This document shows positions 5,113-40,800 of a DNA stretch of 64,000 nt, piece after piece. The notes under the pieces were generated by a model that was not told where the DNA came from, made no database searches, and saw only the letters and a program-made list of their open reading frames with translations. Both the position numbers and the translations under genes were made by a program. How positions within the stretch are numbered: position 1 is the stretch's first letter; each line of letters starts with the position of its first letter. Source of the stretch: Thermodesulfovibrionia bacterium (lineage in GTDB: Bacteria; Nitrospirota; Thermodesulfovibrionia; UBA6902); NCBI GenBank assembly GCA_020053105.1, contig JAGVNU010000084.1, positions 65,133-129,132 on the forward strand, in the 5' to 3' direction.

Positions 5113-6333
5113 TCATGGCAACTGTGAAAGCCACTGATATGCGGGCGCTATAAGTGTCTTGTTCCCGCCATTTGAGGCAAGCCTGTAACTGTCCCCTTCG
5201 TTTGTAAGCTGTACTGCCGGTATGTTCAATGCGCGCTGAAAAATCTGCAGTGATTTCGAAGGCTGTTCGTCAGCGATTTTTGCTTCGATCAGAAGGAAGG
5301 GTTCTCTGTAATTTGCAAGCAGAAAATCTACTTCCTGTTTTTCCTTGTTCTTGATAAAATGCAGAGAGAAATCCCCGTATCCCATGTCATTCCATAATGT
5401 GACCGCCCTGTAGAGTTCTATGGCAACCATGTTTTCAAATCGTGCAGAAGGGGCCTTTATCCTCGGAGCATCCCAGAGATAAACCTTCCTCTCCTTCTGA
5501 ATGGCGCGGGTAATCTTTTCTGTCCATGTCGGGATACTGAAGACAAGAAAGAACCGCTCAAATACATCAAGCCAGTTTCTGACCGTATTGTAGGACACCT
5601 TCAGGTCATTTGCGAGCGACTGCACAGAAAGCGGACTGCCTGTCTTTGACGGTAGCAGTAAGTAAAGTGTCTCCACATCAATAATTGATTTCATATCAAC
5701 AATGTCCCTTATATCCTCCCGGATTAACTGACGCGAATAGGTATTGGACCAGCGCCGGTATGTTGTTGCCTTTCCCGAAAGATATGGTTCAGGAAATCCG
5801 CTGAGGTCTGAAAGCGTATTCCAGATTTCTTTGTTCTTTTTTGCATGTTCCATACTAATATTCAAAGGATTTTCAAGAAAGGCCTCTATCTTGACATTGT
5901 TACTCCCAAGCTCTGCTATAGTGAAAGGGAATAAATGGAACATATAATAACGCCCTGCCAGAGAGTCGCCGCCTTTCTGATATATATCAAGCCTGCCGCT
6001 GCCTGAAACAATAAATTTATAGTCTTCGTGAAACTGATCATATATGCCCTTCAGATAGTTTTTCCAGTCCTTGTACTTGTGGATCTCATCAAGGATGATC
6101 AGTGGATTTGAGGTGTCTTTTCTTTTGATACTTTCAAAAAAAACAGGATTTGAAAAGAAGAGTGTGCGATGTTCTGCAATGTCCCAGTTGAAATAATAGT
6201 TGTTTGTATAAGAGCGTGCGATAAGTTTGGAGAGGGTAGTTTTGCCGGCCTGCCGGGGGCCGGCAATAAAGATCATGCTTTTCCCGGCAGCAAGCTCCTG
6301 CCATATCTTTATATAAAAGCGGCGGTTATGCAT
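5113..6333 (-). CDS. AAA+ ATPase, DUF4143-type ATP-binding protein
   Basis: Walker A GPRQAGKTTL and Walker B-like IILDEIH. The 406-aa architecture is typical of the AAA_14/DUF4143 family. Confidence 0.8.
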   Translation of the reverse strand: MHNRRFYIKIWQELAAGKSMIFIAGPRQAGKTTLSKLIARSYTNNYYFNWDIAEHRTLFFSNPVFFESIKRKDTSNPLIILDEIHKYKDWKNYLKGIYDQFHEDYKFIVSGSGRLDIYQKGGDSLAGRYYMFHLFPFTIAELGSNNVKIEAFLENPLNISMEHAKKNKEIWNTLSDLSGFPEPYLSGKATTYRRWSNTYSRQLIREDIRDIVDMKSIIDVETLYLLLPSKTGSPLSVQSLANDLKVSYNTVRNWLDVFERFFLVFSIPTWTEKITRAIQKERKVYLWDAPRIKAPSARFENMVAIELYRAVTLWNDMGYGDFSLHFIKNKEKQEVDFLLANYREPFLLIEAKIADEQPSKSLQIFQRALNIPAVQLTNEGDSYRLASNGGNKTLIAPAYQWLSQLP

Positions 6334-10611: not shown

Positions 10612-11376
10612 TTACGATCTTACTATCTTCCCCGCCGGAGCCAGGTATATGGTAAATTCATCGGTGCCGTCCACGCCGAGAAGTTCGTCCATCAGGTCTT
10701 GCCGGTAAGCTCCTACAGCACAGGTCCCGGCTCCGATCGCCTCGCATGCGAGATAAAGATTCTGACAAACATGTCCCGCGTCGATCGCGATCACTTTGTG
10801 TGCCGCAAGATCGTACCGCCACTCCATCCGGTAGGGAATGGCTGTCCATATGAATACCAAAGGCGCCTTTCCCAGGAACGGCTGATCAAGGCCTGCTGTT
10901 ACTATCCTTTCTGCAAGACCGTCCAATGTATTTTCGAGTACGAGCTGATGCTCGACCGGCAAATACCGGTATATGCCGAGTTCAAGCCCGGCCACGTTAA
11001 GAACGCACAGGTAAGTCTCAAGCGCATGGCGGCATCCTGTTGAAGGCACTGTGCGGTAGGCCGCAGCCGGATCAACTATCTTCTGTACGCCCTGCGTTGC
11101 CCACAGTAAAAAAGATACTTCCTCAAGTGTCATGGGGTCAGGCCTGAAATGACGGTGGCTTCTCCGTCTGTGCATTGCGGTGATGAGATCAATACCCTGT
11201 ATGGAGTTCCATTTCTGCCGGGGAATAAGGTCAATGCGCTGTTGACCCTTTTTACACGGTTTTTCAACAGGCGGAGGAGGAACACCCCTGCTCTGGTCCG
11301 TTCCTGAAAAATCGATCATCAGGCGTATGCTATCCTTTAAATAAAAGCGGTATTGTTCAAAGTCCTTTTTCCCCAT
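10612..11376 (-). CDS. SagB-type dehydrogenase / nitroreductase family protein
   Basis: RRSHRHF FMN-binding-type motif, LLWATQG, and a C-terminal nitroreductase fold pattern. Confidence 0.75.
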   Translation of the reverse strand: MGKKDFEQYRFYLKDSIRLMIDFSGTDQSRGVPPPPVEKPCKKGQQRIDLIPRQKWNSIQGIDLITAMHRRRSHRHFRPDPMTLEEVSFLLWATQGVQKIVDPAAAYRTVPSTGCRHALETYLCVLNVAGLELGIYRYLPVEHQLVLENTLDGLAERIVTAGLDQPFLGKAPLVFIWTAIPYRMEWRYDLAAHKVIAIDAGHVCQNLYLACEAIGAGTCAVGAYRQDLMDELLGVDGTDEFTIYLAPAGKIVRS

Positions 11377-12342: not shown

Positions 12343-12774
12343 ATGGTAACTTATATTACCGTGCTAAATCAGAAGAAAAAAAATCACAAGGCAATTAGAT
12401 TCATTGATTTATTTTGTGGCATTGGTGGATTTCGCTCTGCTATTGAGCAAGCTGCTGATGAATTAGGAATACCCGTTAAATGCAAGTTCTCCAGTGATAT
12501 AGACGAAGATTGCCAGAAAGCTTATGAAGCAAACTTCAGAGAAAGACCCCTCGGAGATATTACAGCAATCAACGCCGAAGACATACCAGACCATGACATT
12601 CTTCTCGCTGGTTTTCCATGTCAGCCTTTCAGCATCATTGGACACAGACATGGATTTAAGGACACTCGAGGAACGCTTTTCTTTGACATTGCCCGCATAA
12701 TTGAAACAAAAAAACCGACTGCATTTTTATTGGAGAACGTTAAGCTGTTAGACTCATATAAAATTGCTGCTTGA
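12343..12774 (+). pseudogene. truncated DNA (cytosine-5) methyltransferase; motifs I-VI only
   Basis: Motif I FIDLFCGIGGF, motif IV GFPCQPFS and motif VI LLENVKLL are followed at once by DSYKIAA-stop. Motifs VIII-X and the target-recognition domain are absent. Confidence 0.8.
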
Positions 12775-12785
12775 GTTATTCGTAA

Positions 12786-13532
12786 ATGAAAAATGCTTTT
12801 TCAATAAGAGATAAATCAATTTTAGTCGGACTTTATTTATCAAAGTTTGATGAAGAAGCATTAAGTGCACTTGGATTTAGAGGATTTAATGAAGCATTCA
12901 ATACGCTGGGCTATTCAATAGGTTCAAAACCCGCTTCAATAAAAAATTACCGTGATGAATTTGACCCTTTATTCCCCAATCAGAGAAAGGGCTGGCATAA
13001 AAGACCAATCAGAGATTATTGCAAAAAGTTTTATGATGATTTTTCTAAATTATCATTTGGCTCTTTCACTGAATTGATTAAGAGTTTTGTTTTTGATAAT
13101 TATGACATAGAAAAAATTGTGGAAAAAGTTGAGAAGAAAAATATGTCTGAAACTGTTGCCAAACGACTTGTGACAGGTAAAGCGGCGGAAGAATATTTCA
13201 AAATAAATTATAAACTTGTATCCAATTTTTTGAATTATGAGTTGAAAGACACGACAAATCTTGCTTGTGGATTTGACTACAAGTTATCGTTGGAAAATGA
13301 TTTTTATTGTGTTGAAGTAAAAGGGTTAAATGCGAATTCAGGTGGAATCGCATTGACAGAGAAGGAATTTTATGTTGCCAATGAATTGAAGAAAAAATAT
13401 TGTCTTTTTGTTGTAATGAATTTTATTGAGAAACCTAATCATCAGTTTTTCTTTGACCCATTAAACAGCAAGTTGACTTTTAAAAAAGTTGAAAGAAAAG
13501 TAACTCAAATAAATTACTCTACTACGATATGA
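12786..13532 (+). CDS. DUF3883 (NOV C-terminal)-like PD-(D/E)xK nuclease-fold protein
   Basis: The C-terminal pattern TGKAAEEYF...CGFDYKL...VEVKG...IALTEKEF...YCLFVV matches the restriction-endonuclease-like DUF3883 core. Confidence 0.55.
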   Translation: MKNAFSIRDKSILVGLYLSKFDEEALSALGFRGFNEAFNTLGYSIGSKPASIKNYRDEFDPLFPNQRKGWHKRPIRDYCKKFYDDFSKLSFGSFTELIKSFVFDNYDIEKIVEKVEKKNMSETVAKRLVTGKAAEEYFKINYKLVSNFLNYELKDTTNLACGFDYKLSLENDFYCVEVKGLNANSGGIALTEKEFYVANELKKKYCLFVVMNFIEKPNHQFFFDPLNSKLTFKKVERKVTQINYSTTI

Positions 13533-13711
13533 ATAACCAATGGGAATGCTATTTATGTGGCAAGGAATCTGCTCTTGAATTAATACCTGGCGGTTGGCTT
13601 GGCAATTATCATCCACTTTGCAATTCTTGCGCTGACACTGTCTTTTTTGATATGACATCCAAATTTCATGATGCTATGACTTTTCATTATTTGATCGGCG
13701 ATTTTTTATAA
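13529..13711 (+). CDS. small zinc-ribbon-like hypothetical protein (60 aa)
   Basis: CYLCG...CNSC pairs, and an ATGA overlap with the upstream stop. Confidence 0.35.
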   Translation: MNNQWECYLCGKESALELIPGGWLGNYHPLCNSCADTVFFDMTSKFHDAMTFHYLIGDFL

Positions 13712-13850
13712 ATGATGATATAGTTCTCCAGCAAACACCTTGGGGAGCAAAGACAGTCAAGAACCGAAGACCTTCAACTGTTTCTAAAATTCGTCTTATA
13801 TCTGGACGCAAGTCCCCTATCTATTCTTTTGGCGACAAAGAAATCAGCGA

Positions 13851-14240
13851 GTGCGCCCAAATGAACTCGGAGAGAACATTCTCTCCATCTGGAACGAGCG
13901 AGTAGCAAGTATTCGCAAACTCTACAAACATGTCAGGACAGTGGTTTTGATTAAGTCCGATGACCTGCTGGAAGCGGCAGTCTTTGAGTTTGAAACTATT
14001 TTATACAGAGCTGAGAACTTCCGGTGGCAATGGAACGAGCGAACCAATCTTGAGGGATTTGACAAGGACAGCAAGCAGCACATCTTTACATGGCAGCCTC
14101 ACGGTTCTCAGTTTACCATCATAGAAGTCGTGCCTGATGATATACTTGCGATACGAATTAAGCAACCTCCACAAGTAGACCGAGACGACATCCTCAAGGC
14201 AATCAAATTTGATGATTCTTGGATAGAAATCATTAAGTGA
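13851..14240 (+). CDS. hypothetical protein, possible C-terminal remnant of a restriction endonuclease
   Basis: GTG-initiated 129-aa ORF between a C5-MTase fragment and vsr. A second open frame runs into it from upstream (see findings). No motif recognised. Confidence 0.4.
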   Translation: MRPNELGENILSIWNERVASIRKLYKHVRTVVLIKSDDLLEAAVFEFETILYRAENFRWQWNERTNLEGFDKDSKQHIFTWQPHGSQFTIIEVVPDDILAIRIKQPPQVDRDDILKAIKFDDSWIEIIK

Positions 14241-14280
14241 CAACATTGACACTTTTTCAAAATCTGAACGCTCAAGAATA

Positions 14281-14775
14281 ATGGCAAGCGTGAAATCCAG
14301 AGGCAATAAATCCACAGAGCTTAAGTTTGTTTCTATCCTCAAGGACAAGGGCATCACAGGGTGGCGTCGCAATTATCCTTTGATCGGCAACCCGGATTTT
14401 GTTTTCCCGAAAAAGAGAACCGCTGTGTTTATTGATGGTTGCTTTTGGCATAGTTGCCCCTTTCATTGCCGCATGCCCGCTTCAAATAAAAACTACTGGA
14501 ATAATAAAATTGGGAAAAATAAGATTAGAGACAAGAAGATAACAAGTACATTGAGGACAAATGGCTGGCAAGTGATTAGAGTCTGGGAACACGAAATTAA
14601 GTCGAGTAAGCTTAGCAATAAATTAAGCAAACTGAAAGATAAACCCTTTCAGCCCTCTTTTTCGTCTGCACCTCACGCGATATCCCTGACAAACTGCTCC
14701 TTAATAACCGGCCCCTCCGCCCAATCAAGCTTATGCAGTTCCTCCGGAGACAGCCATATCATTTCAATTAGGTAA
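14281..14775 (+). CDS. vsr: very short patch repair endonuclease
   Basis: NPDFVFPKKRTAVFIDGCFWHSCP...KNYWNNKIGKNKIRD...GWQVIRVWEHE matches Vsr. Vsr-like residues (DTFSKSERSRI) continue upstream of the first ATG with no canonical start. Confidence 0.85.
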   Translation: MASVKSRGNKSTELKFVSILKDKGITGWRRNYPLIGNPDFVFPKKRTAVFIDGCFWHSCPFHCRMPASNKNYWNNKIGKNKIRDKKITSTLRTNGWQVIRVWEHEIKSSKLSNKLSKLKDKPFQPSFSSAPHAISLTNCSLITGPSAQSSLCSSSGDSHIISIR

Positions 14776-14807: not shown

Positions 14808-15197
14808 TTATTACCCCATTCATGCCACCACATCCTGTGAATAGCGATAGAACTTTCAAGGTTGTTTTATCTTTCAACTTCATAAATTATTTGGATACTA
14901 GGGACACGTCCCTCGATGAAAAATGACAAGATGGCCTTAAGTGCTGTAGAAAAGAGCGAAAGCGCAGGAACGAAACTATCGAACTTGCGATCTTCCCCGC
15001 TTTCAGGCTTTCCCAATTTATTTACAAAAAACAAAGCATAGATGCTTAAAAAAGAAATATCTGATAAACTTACGTAGGGGCAAGGAACATCCTATAGATA
15101 TTTAGGTATTTAAAGATCCGGGAGTTGAATAGAAATAACATTGTAAGATTTCCGGGATAAGGAACCACTATAAAAATCAAAACAGTAAGGAGTATAC

Positions 15198-16160
15198 ATG
15201 AGATCGTTTAGTTCAAATCCCCGGCGTGGGAAATCACGGCCGCAGCAGCGTTCGAATGTGCCGGCGCGCAGGGTTGCTTCATCAGATGAGATAAAGTTTC
15301 TTGCCGGTACGGCAGTAAACCCGCATACGCGTATTATCCTTGAGAAGGGCAGTGATGATTTGTCCGTCCGTGCGCTTGATCTTATTTGTCCAATAGGGAT
15401 GGGACAGCGTGGTCTTGTGGTATCATCGCCCGGGTTGGGTAAGACAACATTCTTAAAGAATATATCTAACGCGGTAACAAACGGGTATCCCGACATGAAG
15501 GTGTATTGCTTACTTGTGGATGAGCGTCCTGAAGAGGTGACGGATTTTACGCGCAGTGTGAAGGCCAAAGTATATTCCTCATCTATGGACCATAGTCAGG
15601 AAAGTCATATCAAGATTGTTGACAAGGTTGTCGCAGAGGCTTTTAAGGAAGCGGCTGCAGGGCATAATGTGATGATATTGCTTGATTCACTTACGCGTCT
15701 GGCGCGGGTACATAACGCACAGCACAGGGGCAGCGGGCGTACGATGTCCGGAGGAGTGGGCGCCGGCGCGCTTGAAGTGCCACGCCGTATTTTTGGTATT
15801 GCCCGTAATGTAGAGGGTCTGGGATCTATAACGATCCTTGCTACGATCCTGGTCGATACAGGCAGCGCAATGGATAATGTTATATTTGAAGAGTTTAAAG
15901 GTACTGGTAATATGGAACTGGTGCTCTCAAAAGAGCTGGCACAAAAGAGGGTGTTCCCGGCAATCGATGTGATAAAGAGCGGTACCCGGCGTGCTGAGCT
16001 TTTGTTTGAGCCGCAAGAGTACAGACGCCTTGAATTATTACGACGGGGCATGGCATCGATGAATAATAGTGTTGCTGCTATGGAAAAGCTGATAGCGATG
16101 CTTCAGAAATATCCGAGCAATAGCGCTCTGCTGGATTCATTTAAGGATGTTAAGGGTTAG
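15198..16160 (+). CDS. Rho-family hexameric ATPase lacking the N-terminal RNA-binding domain
   Basis: RALDLICPIGMGQRGLVVSSPGLGKTT (Walker A), LLVDERPEEV (Walker B), SGRTMSGGVGAGALEVPRRIFGIARN, EEFKGTGNMELVL and VFPAIDVIKSGTRR. The SD taaggag and an in-frame TAA 12 nt upstream fix the N-terminus. Confidence 0.85.
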   Translation: MRSFSSNPRRGKSRPQQRSNVPARRVASSDEIKFLAGTAVNPHTRIILEKGSDDLSVRALDLICPIGMGQRGLVVSSPGLGKTTFLKNISNAVTNGYPDMKVYCLLVDERPEEVTDFTRSVKAKVYSSSMDHSQESHIKIVDKVVAEAFKEAAAGHNVMILLDSLTRLARVHNAQHRGSGRTMSGGVGAGALEVPRRIFGIARNVEGLGSITILATILVDTGSAMDNVIFEEFKGTGNMELVLSKELAQKRVFPAIDVIKSGTRRAELLFEPQEYRRLELLRRGMASMNNSVAAMEKLIAMLQKYPSNSALLDSFKDVKG

Positions 16161-16345: not shown

Positions 16346-17635
16346 ATGACTGCATTTCCAAAGAAAATTGGTCTTAAGCCCGGCAGGCCGTTATACATAG
16401 GCTCAGTACAAAAGCTTTATAACGTGCCCGGGTGCCCGGACCTTATTATAAGCGAGACCTCCTCCGGGGGATCGGTTTTTGACGTCGGTACAATTTTTAA
16501 TATAGAAGGAAGCGATACCGGCAGGGCGGCCTTCAGGCACCTCGTGTTTCAGGAGCTGCAGAACCCTAGGTCATGGAAGCGGCTTGAGGAGAAACTCTCG
16601 GGGAAAGGGAAGGTCCTTCAGAAGGACAAGGCCGGACTTTTCAATAAAGTGCTGGCCGGATTTATAAAGAGCGGCGCCCCGACCCATCATGCGGGAATGG
16701 TTGAACGTAAAACAGGTAAGGTCTATGCCACAGGATTTCCCGGTGATCTCAGCAACCTTACCTTGATAAAAAAGTTTACTGTTGAAAAACCGGTCCTTAA
16801 AAACGTAATGGGCCGGCATTTTTATGATTATGAAAAATACCACCATATAGACCGCAACGTGATTCCGCTTGAATACATCGTAAGGCTCGGCGTGACCACC
16901 GGCTCGTCCATACTGAGAAAATATGACCGCCTGAGCGATGCAGACAAAAAGGCATACCTGAAAGAACTGGGCGTTAATTCGCTTAGCCCATGGAGCAGGT
17001 TCGATCCACCCATTGTCGATTTAACCACCAAGTATGAACCTGAGGACAGGAACATCAGCCTCCAGGAGGCATCTATGATCTCCGGCGTGGATGGTGATAC
17101 GTTTTCTAAATCACTGATAATGGCAATCCTCGGCGCTTATATGCTTCAGCAGATATTTGACGGCATGGGGCTGACCCTTTGGGACCTCAAATGGGAGATC
17201 GCGAGGGACGGAAAAAAACTCCTCTTCGTGGACACGATCGACACGGACTCGGTCAGGGTGACTTTCAACATGAAGCGCAAAGACAAATCGTATTTCGTCC
17301 ATTTTAATAAACAGGCCATGCGTGACTACTATAAGATCATGCACGCAGACTGGTACAGCGCGGTAAATGAGGCAAAGAAGATTGCCGCTCAAACGGGCAG
17401 GTCGTTTACGGACTTATTAAAGGAAGGCCAGGCGAGGAAAAAATACGCGGGTACGCCGGTTGTGGACAAGGATTTCCTTGACATCCAGGCAGAGAAATTC
17501 CTGATGATCCAGAGTTGTATCCGTGACAATACTCAGGACCTTAAAAAAGAAGCACGGCGCATAGCCAACAAAGAACTGGATTACTATCTGCAATCCGGTA
17601 AAATTAAAGAATATGAAAAATTAAATTCGAGGTAA
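16346..17635 (+). CDS. SAICAR synthase-family protein, unusually long (429 aa) and divergent
   Basis: Collinear with PurC: GSVQKLY, ETSSGGSVFDVG, IPLEYIVRLGVTTGSSILRKY, LTLWDLKWEIARDGKKLLFVDTIDTDSVRV. It has an internal insert and a roughly 100-aa C-terminal extension. Confidence 0.7.
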   Translation: MTAFPKKIGLKPGRPLYIGSVQKLYNVPGCPDLIISETSSGGSVFDVGTIFNIEGSDTGRAAFRHLVFQELQNPRSWKRLEEKLSGKGKVLQKDKAGLFNKVLAGFIKSGAPTHHAGMVERKTGKVYATGFPGDLSNLTLIKKFTVEKPVLKNVMGRHFYDYEKYHHIDRNVIPLEYIVRLGVTTGSSILRKYDRLSDADKKAYLKELGVNSLSPWSRFDPPIVDLTTKYEPEDRNISLQEASMISGVDGDTFSKSLIMAILGAYMLQQIFDGMGLTLWDLKWEIARDGKKLLFVDTIDTDSVRVTFNMKRKDKSYFVHFNKQAMRDYYKIMHADWYSAVNEAKKIAAQTGRSFTDLLKEGQARKKYAGTPVVDKDFLDIQAEKFLMIQSCIRDNTQDLKKEARRIANKELDYYLQSGKIKEYEKLNSR

Positions 17636-17636
17636 T

Positions 17637-18131
17637 ATGGAAAAGGAAAACATTTTCATTAATCAATCAGTAGCGATCCTCTGCGACGGCAACAATATCG
17701 AGCGGAGCATCCATGAACTCTCTAACTCAAAAAATGCAATGATCAATTTTGATAAGCTGATACCTAAACTGCTTAAGGACCGGGGATTGAACAGGCTGCT
17801 TTATTTCCGGGAAGGCAAGTCCATCTCATCAAAATTCGCTGAAAGGCTGCACGAAAACTATTACGGGTCTGTTATCCCGTGTCACAAGTCTGCGGATATC
17901 CCGCTGTCAATCAAGGCAACACAGCTTGCATCAAAGGTTGATACCATTGTCATCATGTCAGGCGACTCGGATTATGTGGAACTGGTCATTCATCTGAAAG
18001 GGCAGGGGGTCAGGGTTGAAATTGCTGCTGTAAGACAGACAACTGCCAGGATATTAATTGAGGAATCTGACCATTTTCACGAGATAACCAGCGAAGATCT
18101 GTTCATATACAAGACCCCGAGAAAGAAGTAG
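17637..18131 (+). CDS. NYN-domain (LabA/DUF88-like) putative RNase
   Basis: AILCDGNNIE...VIMSGDSDYVELVIHLKGQGVRVEI. The start is 1 nt after the upstream stop. Confidence 0.75.
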   Translation: MEKENIFINQSVAILCDGNNIERSIHELSNSKNAMINFDKLIPKLLKDRGLNRLLYFREGKSISSKFAERLHENYYGSVIPCHKSADIPLSIKATQLASKVDTIVIMSGDSDYVELVIHLKGQGVRVEIAAVRQTTARILIEESDHFHEITSEDLFIYKTPRKK

Positions 18132-32884: not shown

Positions 32885-35800
32885 ATGCTGCTTGATAACA
32901 AAACAAAAAAAGTAGATAACGAGCACTCGACAGTATACGACTTCCTGCGTAACTACATTGAGCATGGAAAGGTCGATATGGTTACCGGCTATTTTTCAGT
33001 CAGCGCACTTGCCAGAATAAAGGATGAGATGAATGGTCCTGAAAGATTTCGCATGGTTCTTGGCAATTTACTTAAAGAAGATAATCAGCAGGACAAGGTC
33101 ATAAATCTTCTAAGTGACTCATTAGGTATTGCTCAAGTATTGAATCTCAATCAGTCGGCTAAAAGGGCAGTTGATTTTCTGAGGCAGGAAAAAGTACAGG
33201 TCAAAACCATTCAACGAAACTTCTGCCATGCAAAGACCTATATGTACCATGATCCGGACCCGCGGAAGAATTTCCATATTGTCGGGAGTTCCAACTTGAC
33301 TGATGCAGGACTTGGAATCAGAGAGTCCGGCAATATTGAGTTAAATTCAGCAAGCACGGGGAATGATAATGATTTCAGGGAACTGACTACCTGGTTTAAG
33401 GATCTGTGGTCGAGTAACGATGCATTAACAACAATTGAACTACCTGATAAGTCAAAAGTCAGTGTGAAAGAACATATCATAAATATTATTCAGAACCTGT
33501 ATAGGAAATACACCCCATATGAACTTTATTACAAGGTGCTTTATGAACTATTCAAAGATGACTTACTATCGCTTTCTCTTGATCCAGAATTTAAAAAAGA
33601 GATATCTCATTTAGAAGATACTCTTATTTATAAGATTCTTTATTCCTTCCAGAAGACAGGAGTAATCAGCCTTATCAAAATGCTTCAAAAAAATAACGGA
33701 GCAATTCTGGCTGATGCAGTGGGATTAGGCAAGACATGGACGGCGCTGGCTGTCATGAAGTATTTTAAAATGAAAGGTTTCAGAGTTATCTTGTTATGTC
33801 CGAAGAAGCTGGATGCCAACTGGAGACAATATCTTGAAGGACATCGCTCAAAATTTGAGAGAGACAGGCTAAAGTACACGATCCGTTATCATACTGATCT
33901 GCAGGATGATAGATTAGAGTCGTATCAGGACGGGTATAAGATAAATACTTTTTTTCAGGGCAATCCCAAGCTTTTAGTTGTAATTGATGAGAGTCATAAT
34001 CTGCGGAATGATAAATCATCCCGCTATAAATTCCTCGTTGATAATATCTTTACCCGGAATAAAGAAGTAAAAGTATTGCAGCTTTCTGCAACACCAATAA
34101 ACAATAAACTGATTGATGTCAGAAACCAGTTTAAATTAATGGTAAAGGGTCAGGATAATGGTTTTAAAGAGACATCGCTGGAGATAGGCAGTCTTGAGAG
34201 CATATTCCGGACGGCTCAGAAAGATTTTAAAACATGGCAAGACAAGGACAATAGAAAGATCAGCGATTTTATCCAGATGCTTCCTCAGAAATTCTTTTCG
34301 CTTACTGATGCATTGATCGTTGCCAGAACCAGGAAACTGATTGTAGGTGAATTTGGCGGCCTGTCCTTCCCCAAAAAAGAAGATCCTGAGAATGAATATA
34401 TTAATCCTGAAAACATTGGTAACTTAAAGACCTTTGAGGAACTATTACACGCAATCGAATCGATTAACCTCATTGCATATATGCCACATAAATATATAGA
34501 GAAAATAGCACCAGAAAGCGTATTGAAAGACGAGGTCCAGCGTGAGGGTTTTCTGGTAAAGATGATGTACATTCTCTTGATGAAGCGTCTTGAATCAAGC
34601 TGGCATTCATTCAATAATACAGTAAATAATATTTATGACCATCACACTAACGCTTTGAAGAAAGTTAATAATTTTAAAGATAGAAAAGAAGATACTTGTC
34701 TTGAAGATGAAATATCAGAGCAAGATAATTTCGAGGATGATCTTGAGGAAACTTCTTCCGAATTTACAGGTGCTGATGATGAAACAGAACAGCTTGAGGA
34801 ATTTACTCTTGGGAAAAAGAACCCTATCAATCTTTCAGATATCAGGTACATTGATATGTTTAAGAGGCATCTTGAAGATGATATTGCCCGGTTGGAGAAA
34901 CTTAAATCAAATCTGGATATATTTGAGCAGAATCTGAAAGAGAAAAAAATAAAAGATATTAAATTGGAAAGACTTGTTGAACATATTGAGAAGAAAAGGA
35001 GAGCGCGCGAAAACCAGAAAGTCATTGTCTTTACAGTCTTCACAGATACAGCACAGTATTTATATGAACAGTTAATTGATAAAGGATTTTCAGGAATTGC
35101 TTATGTGTCAGGCTCACAGTCTGCAACCAGTTACGGCTATAGCGGTAAAAATTTCGAAGGGATATTAGAGCGCTTTGCTCCATATACCAAATTGTACAAG
35201 GAAAAAGACTGGAACTATTTATATGAAGAAAAAGGCATCCTGGAGCCGGAGAGTTTTGGAGATTGGAAAGATATCATAAGAAAGCATGATCCTGAGACGT
35301 TGAGGAAATTAGAAGAGCCCTTAGACATTTTGATAGCTACAGACTGTTTAAGTGAAGGCCAGAACCTGCAGGATTGCGACTGTGTGATCAACTACGATAT
35401 ACACTGGAACCCTGTGAGGATCATTCAGCGAATGGGACGTATAGACCGTCTCGGCTCACCCAATCAAACCATCAAAGGCATAAATTTCTGGCCGGGGAAA
35501 AATTATGAAGATTACCTCAGGCTCAAGACAAGGGTAGAAAACCGGATGGCAGCTATGTCTGTTGTTGGTGCAGAGATAGACGAGAAAATGACCCCGGAAA
35601 TCGAAAAGATGGTTAAAGACAATCCCATAGTCACAAGACAGACAGAGAAAATGCTCAATCAAATGCAGTTTACCTGGGAGGATGTTGAGACCAGTGATGA
35701 AAGTCTGGGGCTGAATGACTTGTCTCTGGAGCAGTTCAGGCAGGAACTGTTCGATATTTTCCAGAAGAACAAAGAGTTATTTGAGAAAATGCCCAACGGT

Positions 35801-36244
35801 ATTTTTACCGGCTTCCAGGCGGAACCGGATAAAAAATATACTGAATTGCCGGAGGGAATTATTGCATTACTGGGTTATCCTAAAAAGCCTGATGACGCTG
35901 ACATGCATAAATATAATGAATATCATCTGCTGTATTCTCATGCGAAAGGATTTTCTACCTACAATAATAATCAGGAAATATTAAGCATATTAAGAAAGCA
36001 TAAAAACAAAATCAGGCTCGTCCCTGATGATGTTGAAAATGGCGATAAGGAAGCCCTGCAATGGTTAAGCGACAGGATAAAAGCATGGATTGAAGGGCAG
36101 GTGCCTCAAAAAGCTATTGATGAAATTCAGGGGATTTTTGCTAATGGTGTGCCTAAAAAGAAATCACCTGAAGATAAGAAACTTGATGATAAGTTTAAGC
36201 CGGACAATTTTGATTTAATCACATGGTTTGTCGTGTCGGAGTGA
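32885..36244 (+). CDS. PLD-family (single HKD) nuclease domain fused to an SNF2-family helicase/translocase
   Basis: HKD motif FCHAKTYMY...HIVGSSNLTDAG (nt 33227-33304). Helicase motif I is LADAVGLGKTW, II is VIDESHNLRN, III is LSATPINN, and the C-lobe is LIATDCLSEGQNLQDC...NPVRIIQRMGRIDRLGS. Confidence 0.85.
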   Translation: MLLDNKTKKVDNEHSTVYDFLRNYIEHGKVDMVTGYFSVSALARIKDEMNGPERFRMVLGNLLKEDNQQDKVINLLSDSLGIAQVLNLNQSAKRAVDFLRQEKVQVKTIQRNFCHAKTYMYHDPDPRKNFHIVGSSNLTDAGLGIRESGNIELNSASTGNDNDFRELTTWFKDLWSSNDALTTIELPDKSKVSVKEHIINIIQNLYRKYTPYELYYKVLYELFKDDLLSLSLDPEFKKEISHLEDTLIYKILYSFQKTGVISLIKMLQKNNGAILADAVGLGKTWTALAVMKYFKMKGFRVILLCPKKLDANWRQYLEGHRSKFERDRLKYTIRYHTDLQDDRLESYQDGYKINTFFQGNPKLLVVIDESHNLRNDKSSRYKFLVDNIFTRNKEVKVLQLSATPINNKLIDVRNQFKLMVKGQDNGFKETSLEIGSLESIFRTAQKDFKTWQDKDNRKISDFIQMLPQKFFSLTDALIVARTRKLIVGEFGGLSFPKKEDPENEYINPENIGNLKTFEELLHAIESINLIAYMPHKYIEKIAPESVLKDEVQREGFLVKMMYILLMKRLESSWHSFNNTVNNIYDHHTNALKKVNNFKDRKEDTCLEDEISEQDNFEDDLEETSSEFTGADDETEQLEEFTLGKKNPINLSDIRYIDMFKRHLEDDIARLEKLKSNLDIFEQNLKEKKIKDIKLERLVEHIEKKRRARENQKVIVFTVFTDTAQYLYEQLIDKGFSGIAYVSGSQSATSYGYSGKNFEGILERFAPYTKLYKEKDWNYLYEEKGILEPESFGDWKDIIRKHDPETLRKLEEPLDILIATDCLSEGQNLQDCDCVINYDIHWNPVRIIQRMGRIDRLGSPNQTIKGINFWPGKNYEDYLRLKTRVENRMAAMSVVGAEIDEKMTPEIEKMVKDNPIVTRQTEKMLNQMQFTWEDVETSDESLGLNDLSLEQFRQELFDIFQKNKELFEKMPNGIFTGFQAEPDKKYTELPEGIIALLGYPKKPDDADMHKYNEYHLLYSHAKGFSTYNNNQEILSILRKHKNKIRLVPDDVENGDKEALQWLSDRIKAWIEGQVPQKAIDEIQGIFANGVPKKKSPEDKKLDDKFKPDNFDLITWFVVSE

Positions 36245-36274
36245 TATAGATCGTGAGAAAAATTAGGGTTAACT

Positions 36275-37735
36275 GTGAAATATAAAATTTTCATCAGCAG
36301 CGTCCAAAAAGAGTTTGCGCAGCAGCGTCTGGATTTGAAGGCCTTTTTGCTTGGTGATGCTGTGTTGCGGCGTTTCGTTTCCGAGGTATTCCTGTTCGAG
36401 GAAATTCCGGCAAAAGACCGTCGCGCTGATCAGCTCTATCTGGAAGAAGTAGAACGCTGCGACATATACCTCGGCCTCTTTGGTTATGAATATGGAAATG
36501 AAGACACGCAGGGCGTGTCCGCAACGGAACGTGAATATATCCATGCAACCCGGCTCGGCAAGACCCGGTTGATTTATGTCTGGGGAGCTGACGAAAAAAA
36601 GCGCGCAGCCAAGATGAAAAAGCTGGTCAGCAAGGCCGGCAGTGCCCTGATCCGCCGTCGTATTGAAGACGGGAGCGCCCTTACCGTAGAGGTCTACGCC
36701 AGTCTTGTTGACTATCTCGATACTAACGGTGCGCTGCGTGTCCCACCGTTCGATACTGCCGCTTGTCATGGGGCCGGACTGAAAGACATCTCCCGAAAAC
36801 GTATCGAATGGTTCCTTGAGGCAGCCCGCCGCGAGCGAGGCTTCCCCCTCAAATCCAATACAACAACAAAGGCCTTGCTCACTCATCTCAACCTTCTCGA
36901 TGAAGGGAAACCGACCAATGCCGCCATAATGCTGTTCGGGATAAATCCCCAGCGCTTTCATCGTACCGCCGAAACCAAGTGCATCCACTGTCATGGCACG
37001 GAATACCGTCGTCCCTTTGCTTCCATGCAGGTGTATGGCGGAGATCTCTTTGAACAGGCTGATGAGACGCAGGATTTCATACTGGGCAAGATCAATCGCT
37101 CAATCGGTACCCGCGCTGTGAGCATCACTGCGCCAGCTACATACGAACTCCCCACTGATGCCATTGCGGAGGCTGTCATCAATGCTATTGCGCATCGCGA
37201 TTATCATAGTAATGCATCTGTTGAAGTCCGCCTGTTTGCGGACCGCCTTGAGGTCTGGAACCCCGGCACTCTGCCCGGTACGCTGACGCTCGACGCTCTG
37301 CGTGATGATCATCCTTCGGTGCCGCACAACCCCTTGATTGCCGAGTCGCTCTACCTGACGCGCTATATCGAAAGGGTTGGTTCCGGCACTCAGACGATGA
37401 TTGAGCTCTTCAGAGAAGCTGGACTGCCGGAACCTCAATTCGAGCAACGGAACGGCTCATTTGTCACTACCCTCTGGCGCGACTGGCTGACAGATAAGAT
37501 ATTGGCTGAGCTTGATCTTAATGAGCGACAAATAAAGGCCCTTCCGGTGATCCGGCAACAGCGGCATTTAACCAATAGCGAATACCAAACCATAACCGGA
37601 GCAACGCGACCAACAGCGAAACGAGATCTTGAAGAACTTGTAAGAAAAGGTGTGGTTGTCCCAAAGGGTAGCGGCAGGGGAGCTCGCTACGAGTTATTTA
37701 AGAAACGGCTCATTAATGGTTCAAATGGATCATAA
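36275..37735 (+). CDS. DUF4062-like N-terminal domain fused to a COG2865-type (HATPase_c_4-like) module and a C-terminal wHTH
   Basis: GTG start. KIFISSVQKEFAQQR...CDIYLGLFGYEYG is DUF4062-like. AIAEAVINAIAHRDY...LEVWNPG is HATPase_c_4-like. LTNSEYQTITGATRPTAKRDLEELVRKG is a wHTH. Confidence 0.7.
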   Translation: MKYKIFISSVQKEFAQQRLDLKAFLLGDAVLRRFVSEVFLFEEIPAKDRRADQLYLEEVERCDIYLGLFGYEYGNEDTQGVSATEREYIHATRLGKTRLIYVWGADEKKRAAKMKKLVSKAGSALIRRRIEDGSALTVEVYASLVDYLDTNGALRVPPFDTAACHGAGLKDISRKRIEWFLEAARRERGFPLKSNTTTKALLTHLNLLDEGKPTNAAIMLFGINPQRFHRTAETKCIHCHGTEYRRPFASMQVYGGDLFEQADETQDFILGKINRSIGTRAVSITAPATYELPTDAIAEAVINAIAHRDYHSNASVEVRLFADRLEVWNPGTLPGTLTLDALRDDHPSVPHNPLIAESLYLTRYIERVGSGTQTMIELFREAGLPEPQFEQRNGSFVTTLWRDWLTDKILAELDLNERQIKALPVIRQQRHLTNSEYQTITGATRPTAKRDLEELVRKGVVVPKGSGRGARYELFKKRLINGSNGS

Positions 37736-37877
37736 GCGGGTGGTGATAGAATGGCTCATAAATGGCTCAAATGGTTCACTGGTAACCCGTCACAAACCCG
37801 TCAAATCTGTCACGAAAAGGGCGTGGACATAGGGACGTTTTTAAATACGCCATAATGACGCCAAATAAAAAAGACCA

Positions 37878-40800
37878 ATGATAAACCTGACCATATTCAA
37901 CAACAACATCTTTGACGCAGGCACTGAGTTTTTCAGCCAGCTTGGCATACGCCTGAACAGCAATACCGCCGTCTCATTAGGGTCAAGAGAGCTATTAAAA
38001 GACCATTATAAAGACAAAGATATTTTCAATGCCATTACAGAAACATATTTTCTGGGCCTTGTGGATGACTCGGTTTTTGAGGGAAACGCCCCCCTTTTGG
38101 GCAAGAAGAAAATCTCTCTCAAAGAAGCGGAAAACAGGATCGATCCGGAATATAAGGGGTTGATGGTCTTTGCTGTAAAGCTGAACGATTCTTACCTTCC
38201 TGTTAGAGGTAAGATAGCCGAACTCACAAGGGCGTTTAACAGGGTAAGCAAAAGTGTTCCGGTTGTACTGCTTCTCAAATATGGCGGTCTGCTTTCCTTT
38301 GCTGCTTCTGAAAGGACTAAATATAAACAGGCATGGAGAGATGGAGAAAAGATAGGGAAGATTTCTCTCCTTAAAGATATTAATCTTAAGTCCCCTCATA
38401 CCGGCCATTTAAAGATACTTTATGATTTAAAGGTTAAGGCTGATGTAAACACCTTTGATGCCCTTTATAAGCAGTGGCAGGAGGTGTTTAATGTTCAACT
38501 GCTGAATAAGAAGTTTTTCAGGGAACTTGCTGACTGGTATTTCTGGGCAATACAGAATGTTGAATTTCCCGATGATGCTGAAAAAGACAAGGCTGTCAGG
38601 AATGCAATAAATGTGATCCGGTTAATCACTCGGATAATATTTGTATGGTTTTTAAAAGAAAAAGATTTGGTGCCCGATTCATTGTTCATCAAAAGCCGTA
38701 TAGACAATATTCTCAACTATACGGATAAAACCGGCTCTACATTTTACAAGGCAATCCTGCAGAATTTGTTTTTCGCCACTCTCAATACTGAAATGAACAA
38801 GGACAAGCCCGGAAACCGTATCTTTGTAAACAGGCAATATGGGATAACAAATCTTTACCGGTATGAGAGGTTTTTTAAAGACAAAGATAAGGCATTGGCA
38901 TTATTTAAAAACATTCCATTTCTTAACGGCGGTCTCTTTGAATGTCTTGACAAGGATTTATCCCCCACTTTGGAAAAGGGGGGTGAGGGGGGATTTTCCA
39001 ATAAAAAGACAATCCGCATTGATTGTTTTTCAAACAGAAGAGATAATGAAACACGCCTCACCGTGCCGGACCATTTATTTTTCAATCCCGAAGGCCGGAT
39101 AGTTGATCTTAGCGATGTATATGGAGACAAGAAAAGGAAAAGCGAAAAGGTCAGAGGCCTTATCGACATCCTCGACAGCTATAAATTCACCGTCGATGAA
39201 AATACACCTATTGAAGAGGAAATCGCGCTTGACCCTGAATTATTGGGCAAGGTATTTGAAAATCTTCTGGCAAGTTATAACCCTGAGACCCAGACCACAG
39301 CACGGAAGCAGACAGGATCTTTCTACACACCGAGAGAGATCGTCAATTATATGGTCGATGAATCGTTGATTGCGTATTTGACCACAACCCTTGAGCGTCA
39401 TTCCCGCGAAGGCGGGAATCCAGAGGAACTGGATGCCCGATTAAAAACTTCGGGCATGACGGAAAAGAAGAACAACGATTCCCGTCTTCGCCACCTCGTC
39501 GCATACAATGACGACCCGCATAAATTCACCCCGGTTGAGGTTGATATTCTCATTGCAGCAATCAATACACTGAAGGCCCTCGACCCTGCATGCGGTTCCG
39601 GGGCCTTTCCGATGGGAATGCTTCATAAGCTGGTTTACATCCTTGGCAAGCTTGATCCTGATAATTCAAAATGGCGCGAGCTACAGAAGCAAAAGGCGAT
39701 CAGGGAGACAGAAGAAGCCTACAATATCGGCGACAAGGAAGAGCGTAACAAGCGCCTTCAGGATATAAGTGAGGTTTTTGAAAACAATGCCTCTGATTAT
39801 GGAAGGAAGCTTTATCTTATTGAGAACTGCATCTTCGGCGTTGACATTCAGCCGATAGCAGTGCAGATCGCGAAGCTGAGGTTTTTTGTGTCGCTGATAG
39901 TTGACCAGCGGATCAACCCCAAAAAAGAAAACCTCGGTGTGCGGCCCTTGCCTAATCTTGAGACGAAGTTTGTGGCGGCAAATACGCTGATTGGGATTGA
40001 TAAGCCGAAGTTTATGACATTGGGATTAAGAAATCTCAATATTGACATAAAGGAAAAAGAGCTTAAGCAAGTGAGAGAAAAACACTTCTCTGCAAGGACG
40101 CCTAAAACCAAGGAGAAATACCGGAATGAAGATGCCAGACTCAGAGCAGAATTAGCAGAACTTTTTAAAAACGACGGATTCAGCGCCGAGACAACTCACA
40201 AGTTATCCGAATGGAACCCTTATGACCAGAATGCCCATGCCGATTTTTTTGATCCCGAATGGATGTTCGGCGAAAAGAACGGATTTGACATCTCCATCGG
40301 CAATCCGCCTTATGTGAGGGCTGATTCGGGCCTTGAGCATTTGGCTCTGCGCCAATCTATTATCGAAAGCAAGCAATACGAAACTCTCTGGGAGAAGTGG
40401 GACCTATTTGTTCCCTTCATTGAGTATGGTTACAAGCTTTTAAAACCGGGCGGTATAACCACGATGATAGTGTCCGACGCCTATTGCCATTCCAAGTACG
40501 CACAAAAATCTCAAAAGTGGTTTCTGCAAAACAGCAGGATTTTACGCCTGGACTTTTTGAGCAAGATAAAGGTATTCGAGGCTGGTGTTCATAACATTGT
40601 CTATTTCTTCCAGAAAGCTGAAGGCAGTGGCAACAAGCCGGAGCGGCGGGAACATGAGGATGAGTTTGGAAAGGTGAAGGTATTGCCGACAGATGAGCAG
40701 CGGAATCTTACGTATCGGGCATTCTTCCCTCAGGAACAAGGGGAAAATATTAGTGGCATACCGTTAGAAGAAATATGTTATATCACTTATGGTTTAAGGC

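Follow-up and report, generated by a model that had tools for sequence, protein, structure and literature searches.

A 320-aa protein encoded in a Thermodesulfovibrionia contig, within a stretch of 64,000 nucleotides that was analyzed as a whole (the window), retains the Rho fold together with every residue of ATP hydrolysis and of the Q-loop, and carries none of the N-terminal RNA-binding domain. The family to which it belongs is monophyletic, is spread over several phyla and includes cultured Gammaproteobacteria. The best explanation, which we hold with about even confidence, is that the protein represents a vertically maintained lineage of Rho paralogs and acts as an accessory RNA motor of the Rho type that is independent of the primary binding site (PBS).

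The reading frame opens with an ATG that is preceded, 12 nt to its 5′ side, by an in-frame TAA (15186–15188) lying within the Shine-Dalgarno (SD) sequence TAAGGAG (15186–15192), which confirms the start proposed in the original prediction. It had also been claimed that the short form is not an artefact of ORF calling, and an assembly error hiding an N-terminal exon had been considered as the alternative; both kinds of artefact are excluded because more than 120 homologous protein clusters have the same length of ~320 aa, in addition to the in-frame stop, the conserved SD and the absence of any remnant of the N-terminal domain (NTD). Searches by tblastn with the NTD of E. coli or Nitrospirota Rho gave no match in any frame of the window, which rules out a frameshifted N-terminal exon within it; the same queries gave no match in 82 related loci. 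A split Rho with its NTD encoded nearby was likewise rejected, as searches of the window, L001/L002 and 80 metagenome loci revealed none. Weak NTD matches in three loci (L147/L150/L176) sit inside a glutamine synthetase gene, and only a few loci have a cold-shock (OB) gene less than 10 kb away, the linkage being inconsistent. The 5′ leader is kept also in non-syntenic relatives and is without supported secondary structure: one weak hairpin with little covariation was found in 10 close relatives and none in 20 sequences, an Rfam search gave no match, and a scan for promoters and terminators gave nothing above background. The features of the locus are listed in the table.

Table. Coordinates in the window of the short rho gene, its leader and the motifs of its product
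Feature	Position	Strand	Remark
Conserved 5′ leader: imperfect inverted repeat, A-rich tract, SD TAAGGAG, fixed spacing to ATG	15107..15197	+	
CDS, ATPase-only Rho-like protein, 320 aa, stop codon included	15198..16160	+	PF00006, NCBIfam and PDB matches
Arg/Ser-rich N-terminal tail, residues 1–30, MRSFSSNPRRGKSRPQQRSNVPARRVASSD	15198..15287	+	predicted disordered
Linker/connector, residues 31–60, equivalent to E. coli Rho ~130–160 (ILFENLTPLH...)	15288..15377	+	
Walker A / P-loop SSPGLGKTT (K82, T83)	15423..15449	+	
DERPEE, catalytic Glu109 and Arg-valve Arg110	15519..15536	+	invariant in 146/146 aligned Rho-type sequences
Walker B LLDS (D163), then R167, R170	15678..15689	+	
Q-loop region NAQHRGSGRTMSGGVG (R181 = Ec K283, S184 = Ec T286, G185, G186)	15714..15761	+	
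R-loop DTGSAMD; Ala224 at the basic RNA-contacting position (Ec K326)	15855..15875	+	
GTRR, arginine finger R264	15981..15992	+	

The claim that the protein is collinear with Rho from about residue 32 agrees with three comparisons: residues 127–417 of E. coli Rho align to 15279–16145 with 46% identity (tblastn), residues 29–314 align to positions 128–412 of 413 in the NCBIfam Rho models, and the PDB entry most similar in sequence is Rho of T. thermophilus, over residues 147–424. Profile searches for the N-terminal, RNA-binding and ATPase domains of Rho returned PF00006 as the sole Pfam domain. The three-helix bundle Rho_N (PF07498) gave no Pfam match at E ≤ 1, with only 30 residues standing before the linker, and the OB-fold primary site Rho_RNA_bind (PF07497) gave no Pfam match in the 320-aa protein, so that Pfam, NCBIfam and tblastn together uphold the proposed absence of the whole N-terminal RNA-binding domain. 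The score for the equivalog TIGR00767 was below its cut-off (341.4 vs 509.45 bits), and the name Rho given by PGAP is due to the looser model NF006886, which was passed (360.2 bits for a cut-off of 315). The short-form model NF041509 (paralog_Rho2) was ruled out as the family of the protein on score (288.7 bits for a cut-off of 628, aligned to model positions 79–358 only); relatives scored 314–392 bits and no tested ATPase-only form reached its cut-off. The next-closest family, FliI and the type III secretion ATPases, gave 84–90 bits against cut-offs of 380–620, which places the protein outside it. The AF2 model (pLDDT 86.7) has Rho chains as its top Foldseek matches (TMq 0.85, rmsd 1.5 Å over 286 columns).

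Residues K82/T83, E109, R110, D163, R167 and R264 are invariant in the aligned Rho-type sequences, and Q-loop residues R181, S184, G185 and G186 are invariant or conservatively replaced in the family alignment. The linker follows the family motif [DE]E.K.FLAGT..P.PRI.LE.GS..L..RA.DL., the P-loop has G79 (a family signature) where E. coli has K181, and Met stands in place of E. coli F232. The string LLVDERPEEV had been mistaken for Walker B; it is the motif of the catalytic Glu and Arg valve, and Walker B is ILLDS (D163). The pattern DERPEEVT matches all Rho. The claim that all ATPase and secondary-site elements are present stands for the catalytic and Q-loop residues and fails for the basic residue of the R-loop, replaced here by Ala224. 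This position is occupied by A33, N12, R6, V4 and C1 in the Nitrospirota-type subfamily (n = 56), and by R/K in 33 of 34 other ATPase-only forms, in all seven Group-B-like forms and in 48 of 49 canonical Rho proteins. A functional role of the basic residue has been described (PMC4499133; bioRxiv 10.1101/069559): the K326A substitution lowers the ATPase activity of E. coli Rho by ~75%, and M. tuberculosis Rho (MtbRho), with Thr at this position, is a weak motor. By analogy with MtbRho, loss of the R-loop Lys/Arg would make the Nitrospirota subfamily a weak, short-range motor.

A tail of about 30 Arg/Ser-rich residues had been proposed to replace the RNA-binding domain, and this holds: residues 1–30 carry a net charge of about +7 to +8, and AF2 gives pLDDT < 50 for residues 1–23. 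Basic disordered tails are predicted in all ATPase-only members of the family, with a median of 28 aa, a charge of +7 and a composition of 20% R, 20% S and 10% Q. Tail residues R9, R10 and R25 are conserved, and the tail evolves with dN/dS ~0.5 vs ~0.13 in the core. Evolving this fast, the tail may serve as a compositional spacer and not bind RNA.

The ~320-aa form is found in the more than 120 clusters cited above, which come from Nitrospirota/Thermodesulfovibrionia MAGs and are 72–93% identical; this Nitrospirota branch of the ATPase-only family is large and was previously unreported. PVC bacteria, Omnitrophota, Elusimicrobia and cold-marine Gammaproteobacteria have related forms; carriers among cultured bacteria are Colwellia psychrerythraea 34H (on the chromosome, CP000083.1, at about 718.7–719.7 kb), Colwellia MT41, Shewanella benthica and Paraglaciecola, and one further member is encoded by the phage-plasmid of Spartinivicinus ruber. 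The family core is under strong purifying selection (dN/dS range 0.07–0.18). Relative to the closest relative, dS of the short rho equals that of the neighboring DJ-1 gene, as expected of vertical inheritance. A phylogeny of short Rho-like proteins, as called for in the original prediction, was built on the ATPase core by neighbor-joining, a method giving moderate support here and open to long-branch effects. It places 87 ATPase-only forms in one clade (84% bootstrap) set apart from the canonical Rho of Nitrospirota (L044, L070), with Group-B-like forms joining this clade at 65% NJ bootstrap; the Nitrospirota subclade of the 320-aa protein has 92–98%, and a Colwellia protein of 314 aa (P0465) groups with L006 inside the same 87-member clade. 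Of 15 family signature positions, five are common to Group B (F117, S129, E193, R196 and I198), and identity to Nitrospirota canonical Rho is only 46–49%. The tree and the signature residues support the view that the 320-aa protein belongs to a separate Rho-paralog lineage and is not a recently truncated resident rho. The proposal of a paralog with another loading mechanism or role is retained as to the separate lineage and given up as to the link with a defence islet. The closest typical-length Rho proteins (P0126, P0285) are encoded on contigs of 66% and 54% GC, and L070 shows rho-rpmE synteny. Compared by accession block, 12 short and 11 canonical Nitrospirota Rho entries had no MAG in common.

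Canonical Rho depends on the OB-fold crown at its N-terminus to locate rut sites. Lacking an OB-fold primary site, the 320-aa protein must engage RNA differently. It is predicted to form a hexameric, Rho-like ring that would hydrolyze ATP and thread RNA 5′→3′ through its central channel. Six tails of +7/+8 charge could capture RNA non-specifically, on the face that usually bears the PBS crown and in place of the recognition of YC-rich rut sites by six OB clefts, and NusG or another adaptor may assist this capture. In the source genome such a protein would most likely work beside a canonical Rho, in an accessory role as RNA translocase or terminator. This coexistence is extrapolated from other phyla: ATPase-only members are present in Colwellia, in Shewanella and on a Spartinivicinus plasmid, and a functional Rho is found in all Pseudomonadota.

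It seems rather unlikely that the canonical rho has been lost and that the ATPase-only protein performs termination genome-wide as the sole housekeeping Rho, loading through its tails and/or NusG. This reading is consistent with a highly conserved family of fixed length, present as one monocistronic copy at every locus examined and inherited vertically with a neighboring chromosomal gene; its strong SD and its leader, both conserved, are what a core gene would be expected to have. Additionally, no canonical Rho NTD was found in 740 kb of flanks, although only ~0.2 matches are expected there by chance, M. tuberculosis has an essential Rho without the R-loop Lys, and PGAP names the ATPase-only proteins Rho. 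However, family members of Gammaproteobacteria occur alongside a canonical Rho and one member resides on a phage-plasmid, the clade does not derive from Nitrospirota canonical Rho, and the R-loop position is free to vary (A/N/R/V/C) in the subfamily. Other Nitrospirota, including T. yellowstonii, carry a functional Rho, and Moreira et al. (2024) reported no species of Pseudomonadota, PVC or Nitrospirota without a functional Rho among 2730 genomes.

A modulator of termination, acting through mixed hexamers with full-length Rho (in which fewer or more primary sites per ring would tune termination) or through competition for NusG/RNAP, is unlikely. Moreira et al. suggested that Group B paralogs enter hetero-hexamers and have their missing functions provided in trans, and the signature residues common to the short family and Group B as well as the intact CTD, which bears the hexamer-cohesion motifs, would fit such an assembly. 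Nevertheless, the low identity to Nitrospirota canonical Rho counts against this reading, the 15 family-specific substitutions may do so as well, and a passive poison subunit would not require the full set of catalytic residues.

The neighborhood bears on the claimed tie to a defence-type islet, which did not survive. The block of Dcm fragment, NOV_C and Vsr genes upstream of the short rho is a low-GC insertion; L099, the closest relative, lacks this block and has the DJ-1 gene 1.2 kb upstream of its short rho. The suggested test of neighborhood conservation showed that synteny is not conserved, with wholly different neighbors within ±10 kb in two related, complete genomes (CP070632.1, assembly GCA_020356065.1, and ERZ21831077 contig_2). 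The defence link fails on these two counts, the restriction-modification remnant being an insertion specific to one lineage and the gene order differing between relatives, and PADLOC-DB gave P-loop-level matches only (E = 5e-4 and 2e-3, 15–18 bits). The 320-aa protein is thus not part of a defence system, and a defence role was ruled out. More broadly, a factor of phages, plasmids or defence islands, a Rho-like ATPase that disturbs the transcription of invader or host, is very improbable. The Spartinivicinus ruber member lies between holin and structural genes (the same element is present in IMG/VR) and the copy in the window adjoins the restriction-modification remnant, but no Nitrospirota-type member was found in 2.9 million viral contigs, 50,697 phage records or 72,556 plasmids, the PADLOC match is generic P-loop noise, and the neighbors are housekeeping genes. 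That the gene is a decaying or non-functional Rho remnant, as the supplement of Moreira et al. (2024) says of such proteins and as the loss of the R-loop Lys and of a domain considered necessary for rut recognition might suggest, is scarcely credible, being already contradicted by the selection analysis of the core and opposed by catalytic residues invariant across at least four phyla, conserved length and leader, and a confident fold prediction.

Motor-only Rho proteins are listed in a single survey, which dismissed them as non-functional. They form one coherent multi-phylum family under purifying selection, always with a basic tail predicted to be disordered. If active, these proteins would represent a second way, nonspecific for sequence, in which a Rho-type ring is loaded onto RNA, and would either terminate transcription or remove R-loops in an accessory role, or else regulate canonical Rho; were the protein instead the sole Rho, it would be a natural "minimal Rho", and factor-dependent termination could then do without the primary binding site. 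Since PGAP names all such proteins "transcription termination factor Rho", surveys of Rho presence or absence in MAGs can be misled. Experimentally tractable entry points exist, such as Colwellia psychrerythraea 34H.

Compared with canonical Rho (E. coli P0AG30, T. thermophilus 8HSJ and the 415-aa Nitrospirota proteins L044/L070), the accessory motor proposed here shares the C-terminal RecA-type motor, including Walker A/B, catalytic Glu, Arg valve, Arg finger, Q-loop and C-terminal helices, with 46–51% identity and an rmsd of 1.5 Å over 286 residues. It differs in its 30-aa basic, predicted-disordered tail where canonical Rho has Rho_N and the OB-fold, and in the replacements R-loop Lys/Arg to Ala, E. 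coli K181 to Gly and E. coli F232 to Met. The "Rho-like ATPase domain" category in the supplement of Moreira et al. (2024) holds 28 sequences, from 28 of 2730 genomes, present as second copies (for example in Colwellia psychrerythraea 34H, Marinomonas arctica and Lacunisphaera limnophila); the Colwellia protein is listed beside a functional Rho, and these proteins were stated, without experiments, to be "not functional Rho factors". In domain content the 320-aa protein fits this category, as searches detect its ATPase domain alone and the essential motor residues are kept, whereas none was reported from Nitrospirota. Unlike other ATPase-only forms, which keep the R-loop Lys/Arg, its subclade combines an Arg/Ser/Gln tail with R-loop loss. 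Group B or Type 4 proteins (D'Heygere 2013; Moreira 2024), considered here together with NF041509, are also shortened Rho paralogs, usually second copies, and appear as the nearest neighbors on the ATPase-core tree, with 65% bootstrap and five signature residues in common; however, they keep the OB-fold (N-termini of ~100 aa; GFGFLR in L040), whereas the 320-aa protein has no OB domain. Finally, MtbRho is likewise non-basic at the R-loop position (Thr501) and engages RNA through a positively charged disordered region as a weak motor of low processivity, but it keeps a complete NTD with its OB fold, the disordered region being an insertion and not a replacement.

The gene referred to here as short rho encodes a 320-aa Rho-type motor that, as the original prediction stated, lacks the N-terminal RNA-binding domain. 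Pfam searches returned only PF00006 (F1/Rho-type nucleotide-binding, residues 57-261), whereas PF07498 (Rho_N) and PF07497 (Rho_RNA_bind) were not found even at E<=1. Residues 29-314 correspond to positions 128-412 of the 413 in the NCBIfam Rho model, in the PDB the closest sequence is that of residues 147-424 of T. thermophilus Rho, and the proposed collinearity with the C-terminal part of E. coli Rho extends over residues 127-417 of the latter (46% identity). The start is also genuine, since the ATG is preceded by a TAAGGAG Shine-Dalgarno sequence that contains an in-frame TAA 12 nt upstream. No Rho N-terminal domain was found by tblastn in any frame of the window with E. coli and Nitrospirota queries, so that no frameshifted or separately encoded copy is hidden nearby; this and the length kept in more than 120 clusters exclude an ORF-calling or assembly artefact. 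Its score clears the cut-off of the loose model NF006886 (360 vs 315 bits) but not that of the equivalog TIGR00767 (341 vs 509 bits), and is far from reaching that of NF041509 'Rho, short form' (289 vs 628 bits). All ATPase-only forms tested pass NF006886 (cut-off 315 bits) and fail TIGR00767, hence their PGAP name 'transcription termination factor Rho'; a name-based survey of MAGs for Rho would take them for the canonical factor.

Coordinates of short rho and of the features discussed (window positions unless an accession is given)
Feature	Position	Strand	Remarks
AAA_14 + DUF4143 ATPase gene	5113-6333	-	matches PADLOC candidate defence family PDC-S01 (E 3e-51)
Nitroreductase gene	10612-11376		
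Decayed restriction-modification remnant	12343-14775		Dcm methylase fragment (143 aa of ~324-aa profile), NOV_C-domain nuclease-like protein, 129-aa ORF, Vsr nicking endonuclease
Short-rho leader	15041-15197		
TAAGGAG	15186-15192		
Short rho CDS	15198..16160	+	sole long ORF at site
SAICAR-synthetase-like (purC-like) gene and NYN-domain gene	16346-18131		purC-like product 429 aa, partial divergent match (residues 118-339); stop 17635, next start 17637
Defence island	32885-41525		
Defence island gene			1119-aa PLD(HKD)+SNF2 helicase; PADLOC C3a139 'HKD+Snf2', also DrmD/BrxH-like
Defence island gene			486-aa DUF4062 + HATPase_c_4 protein; weak matches to pAgo-associated models
Defence island gene			1215-aa Eco57I-like type IIG restriction-methylase
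Spartinivicinus pB member (L188)	NZ_CP048880.1 54176-55135	opposite to flanking holin and hypothetical genes	319 aa, Lys-rich tail
Colwellia loci (L185, C. psychrerythraea 34H; L186)	L185: CP000083.1 712725-725669		

An AlphaFold2 model built on a 64-sequence alignment has a mean pLDDT of 86.7, with residues 1-23 below 50 and predicted to be disordered, and its top Foldseek matches in the PDB are all Rho chains (TMq 0.85, rmsd 1.5 A, 286 columns). In an alignment of 146 sequences the Walker A Lys/Thr, catalytic Glu, Arg valve, Walker B Asp, R269 and R272 (E. coli numbering), Arg finger and Q-loop R/K-x-x-S/T-G-G are invariant. The expectation that all ATPase and secondary-site elements are present thus holds for the catalytic residues and the Q-loop but not for the R-loop, whose basic residue (E. 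coli K326) is Ala224; additionally, LLVDERPEEV, which had been read as Walker B, is instead the catalytic-Glu/Arg-valve motif. At the R-loop position the 56 Nitrospirota-type sequences carry Ala (33), Asn (12), Arg (6), Val (4) or Cys (1); Arg or Lys occupies it in 33 of 34 other ATPase-only forms, all seven Group-B-like sequences and 48 of 49 canonical Rho proteins. E. coli K326 makes contact with the RNA backbone and links the pore with the ATPase site, and K326A lowers ATPase activity by ~75%; M. tuberculosis Rho has Thr at this position, contributing to a weak, low-processivity motor (PMC4499133; bioRxiv 10.1101/069559). Because the R-loop lysine is missing, short Rho is predicted to be a short-range motor.

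Short Rho combines an intact Rho motor fold and chemistry with a basic disordered tail and has no primary RNA-binding site (PBS, the OB fold). Among Nitrospirota-type tails the median length is 28 residues and the net charge +7 (R 20%, S 20%, Q 10%); for other ATPase-only forms the corresponding values are 33 and +6 (R 20%, P 12%, N 9%, H 7%). Tail residues R9, R10 and R25 are conserved. Q/R/S/G-rich units are expanded in some homologues; the enlarged N-termini of five of them (L115, L122, L132, P0097, P0118) consist of tandem Q/R/S/G/P-rich units, e.g. GQSRHGQSRYGQSQPGQKRAGQSRQGQSRPQQRS and PGRKQRPHQPGRRQRPNQPGRRQRPNQPARR, suggesting that repeats drive the variation in tail length. A hexamer would place ~45 positive charges on the face where the PBS crown normally sits. 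The protein would assemble as a hexameric ring, capture RNA electrostatically through its tails without YC specificity, possibly with help from NusG, and thread it past the Q-loops with RNA-stimulated ATP hydrolysis.

Protein searches gave more than 120 clusters at 72-93% identity, nearly all of 315-322 aa. Their source is MAGs labelled Nitrospirae, Nitrospirota or Thermodesulfovibrionia, and every one bears the annotation 'transcription termination factor Rho'; among the carriers are the complete genome CP070632.1 (3.17 Mb) and a contig of 4.29 Mb. A metagenome scan with the first 85 residues added 80 loci, where nearly all complete ORFs have 305-350 aa and a basic tail of 25-60 residues followed by [DE]E.K.FLAGT..P.PRI.LE.GS..L..RA.DLICPIGMGQR. 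Short rho is under purifying selection: pairwise Nei-Gojobori dN/dS against 18 relatives is 0.07-0.18 in the core and ~0.2-1.2 (median ~0.5) in the 27-codon tail. Against the closest relative (L099), dN and dS are 0.041 and 0.35 for short rho and 0.038 and 0.33 for the adjacent DJ-1 gene, and this equality fits vertical inheritance. The leader is conserved in nucleotide sequence across non-syntenic genomes (upstream regions of L001 and L099-L139), with an A-rich tract, TAAGGAG and fixed spacing; close relatives conserve ~100 nt more, including the imperfect inverted repeat GATCYGGGAG...CTCYRGRAT. The leader showed no covariation support and no Rfam match; a role in translation or autoregulation is possible.

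The link to a defence-type islet, also part of the original prediction, was not sustained. The restriction-modification remnant upstream of short rho (37% GC vs 45.6% for the window) and the nitroreductase gene are entirely absent from L099, where short rho follows the DJ-1 gene at a distance of 1.2 kb. In CP070632.1 it has msrA-like and thioesterase genes as neighbours, in the 4.29-Mb contig acetyltransferase and AraC regulator genes. Since short Rho also gave no meaningful PADLOC match, the adjacency is coincidental. A genuine defence island of low GC (38-43%), 17 kb away, is unrelated to short rho; a further candidate defence ATPase gene is listed in the table. Downstream lie the SAICAR-synthetase-like gene, an NYN-domain gene, purB, and then nusB with the riboflavin operon. 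The purC-like gene is translationally coupled to the NYN-domain putative RNase gene and faces purB, an unusual pairing.

Basic-tailed ATPase-only relatives occur in Planctomycetales, Omnitrophota and Elusimicrobia MAGs and in cultured Gammaproteobacteria: Colwellia psychrerythraea 34H (chromosome CP000083.1), Colwellia sp. MT41, Shewanella benthica, Paraglaciecola and Glaciecola. The genera named are mainly marine, from cold or deep water. In Colwellia a ~675-nt intergenic region precedes the Rho-like gene and a cold-shock (CSD/OB-fold) gene lies 450 nt downstream, a linkage not kept in the Shewanella or Nitrospirota loci. Spartinivicinus ruber carries one member on its 102-kb phage-plasmid pB; the gene is placed between holin and hypothetical genes, close to those for terminase and portal, and looks like a moron-like cargo gene; the element is also in IMG/VR (L083, UViG_2909979649_000009). 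Searches of viral, phage and plasmid collections gave no member of the Nitrospirota type. A 301-aa ATPase-only protein (P0121, MEZ0371657.1; 61% identical) comes from a MAG classified as Candidatus Sericytochromatia; with a contig of just 4.2 kb, it may be mis-binned. Cyanobacteriota, the phylum concerned, are reported to lack Rho.

In a tree computed by neighbour joining from 282 columns of the ATPase core, with 100 bootstraps, 87 ATPase-only sequences form one clade (84%) with no canonical Rho inside, the Nitrospirota-type subclade is supported at 92-98%, and seven Group-B-like sequences (~385-415 aa) join the clade at 65%. High-GC Nitrospirota MAGs (L044, L070) have a 415-aa canonical Rho that groups with the other canonical sequences, in agreement with the suggested paralog status. 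In that high-GC lineage (57-59%) canonical Rho is unusually conserved: the matches listed comprise more than 120 clusters at >=92% identity, all of 415 aa, and the gene order at L044 and L070 is rho-rpmE-DUF1385. Family-specific residues occupy 15 positions (e.g. Ec K181->G, K170->M, V206->C); with the separate clade, these place short Rho in an old paralog lineage and rule out a recent truncation of a resident rho.

By falling likelihood, the possible roles are an accessory rut-independent terminator or R-loop/RNA remodeller, a modulator of canonical Rho through mixed rings, and the sole terminator. The first two both imply coexistence with a canonical Rho, which is probable. That short Rho is the only Rho of its genome is unlikely: it is conserved like a core gene, in one monocistronic copy at each locus examined and with a conserved leader and strong Shine-Dalgarno sequence, but family members and canonical Rho coexist in every case of a known organism (Gammaproteobacteria), a mobile element carries one member, the lineage does not derive from the canonical Nitrospirota Rho, which occurs with extreme conservation in other Nitrospirota, and the R-loop position drifts freely.

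Proteins of this kind are uncharacterised, although the ATPase-only architecture has been catalogued, in a supplement only and dismissed without experiments. Moreira et al. (2024; PMC11347177) define functional Rho by its RNA-binding and ATPase domains, their Type 4 or 'Group B' lacking only the Rho_N bundle, and list as 'Rho-like ATPase domain' 28 sequences in 28 of 2730 genomes, including Colwellia psychrerythraea 34H, Marinomonas arctica, Lacunisphaera limnophila, Ktedonosporobacter and Myxococcales; these are called 'not functional Rho factors', yet 'well conserved' with 'the essential residues'. None is from Nitrospirota, represented there by four species including T. yellowstonii, none of which is among the species lacking functional Rho (Moreira et al., 2024; PMC11347177). 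New here are a large branch of the family in Nitrospirota, a basic tail as a universal feature, the analysis of selection, an R-loop loss specific to the subfamily, a copy on a phage-plasmid, and the monophyly and affinity with Group B, which has 5 of the 15 signature positions in common with the family.
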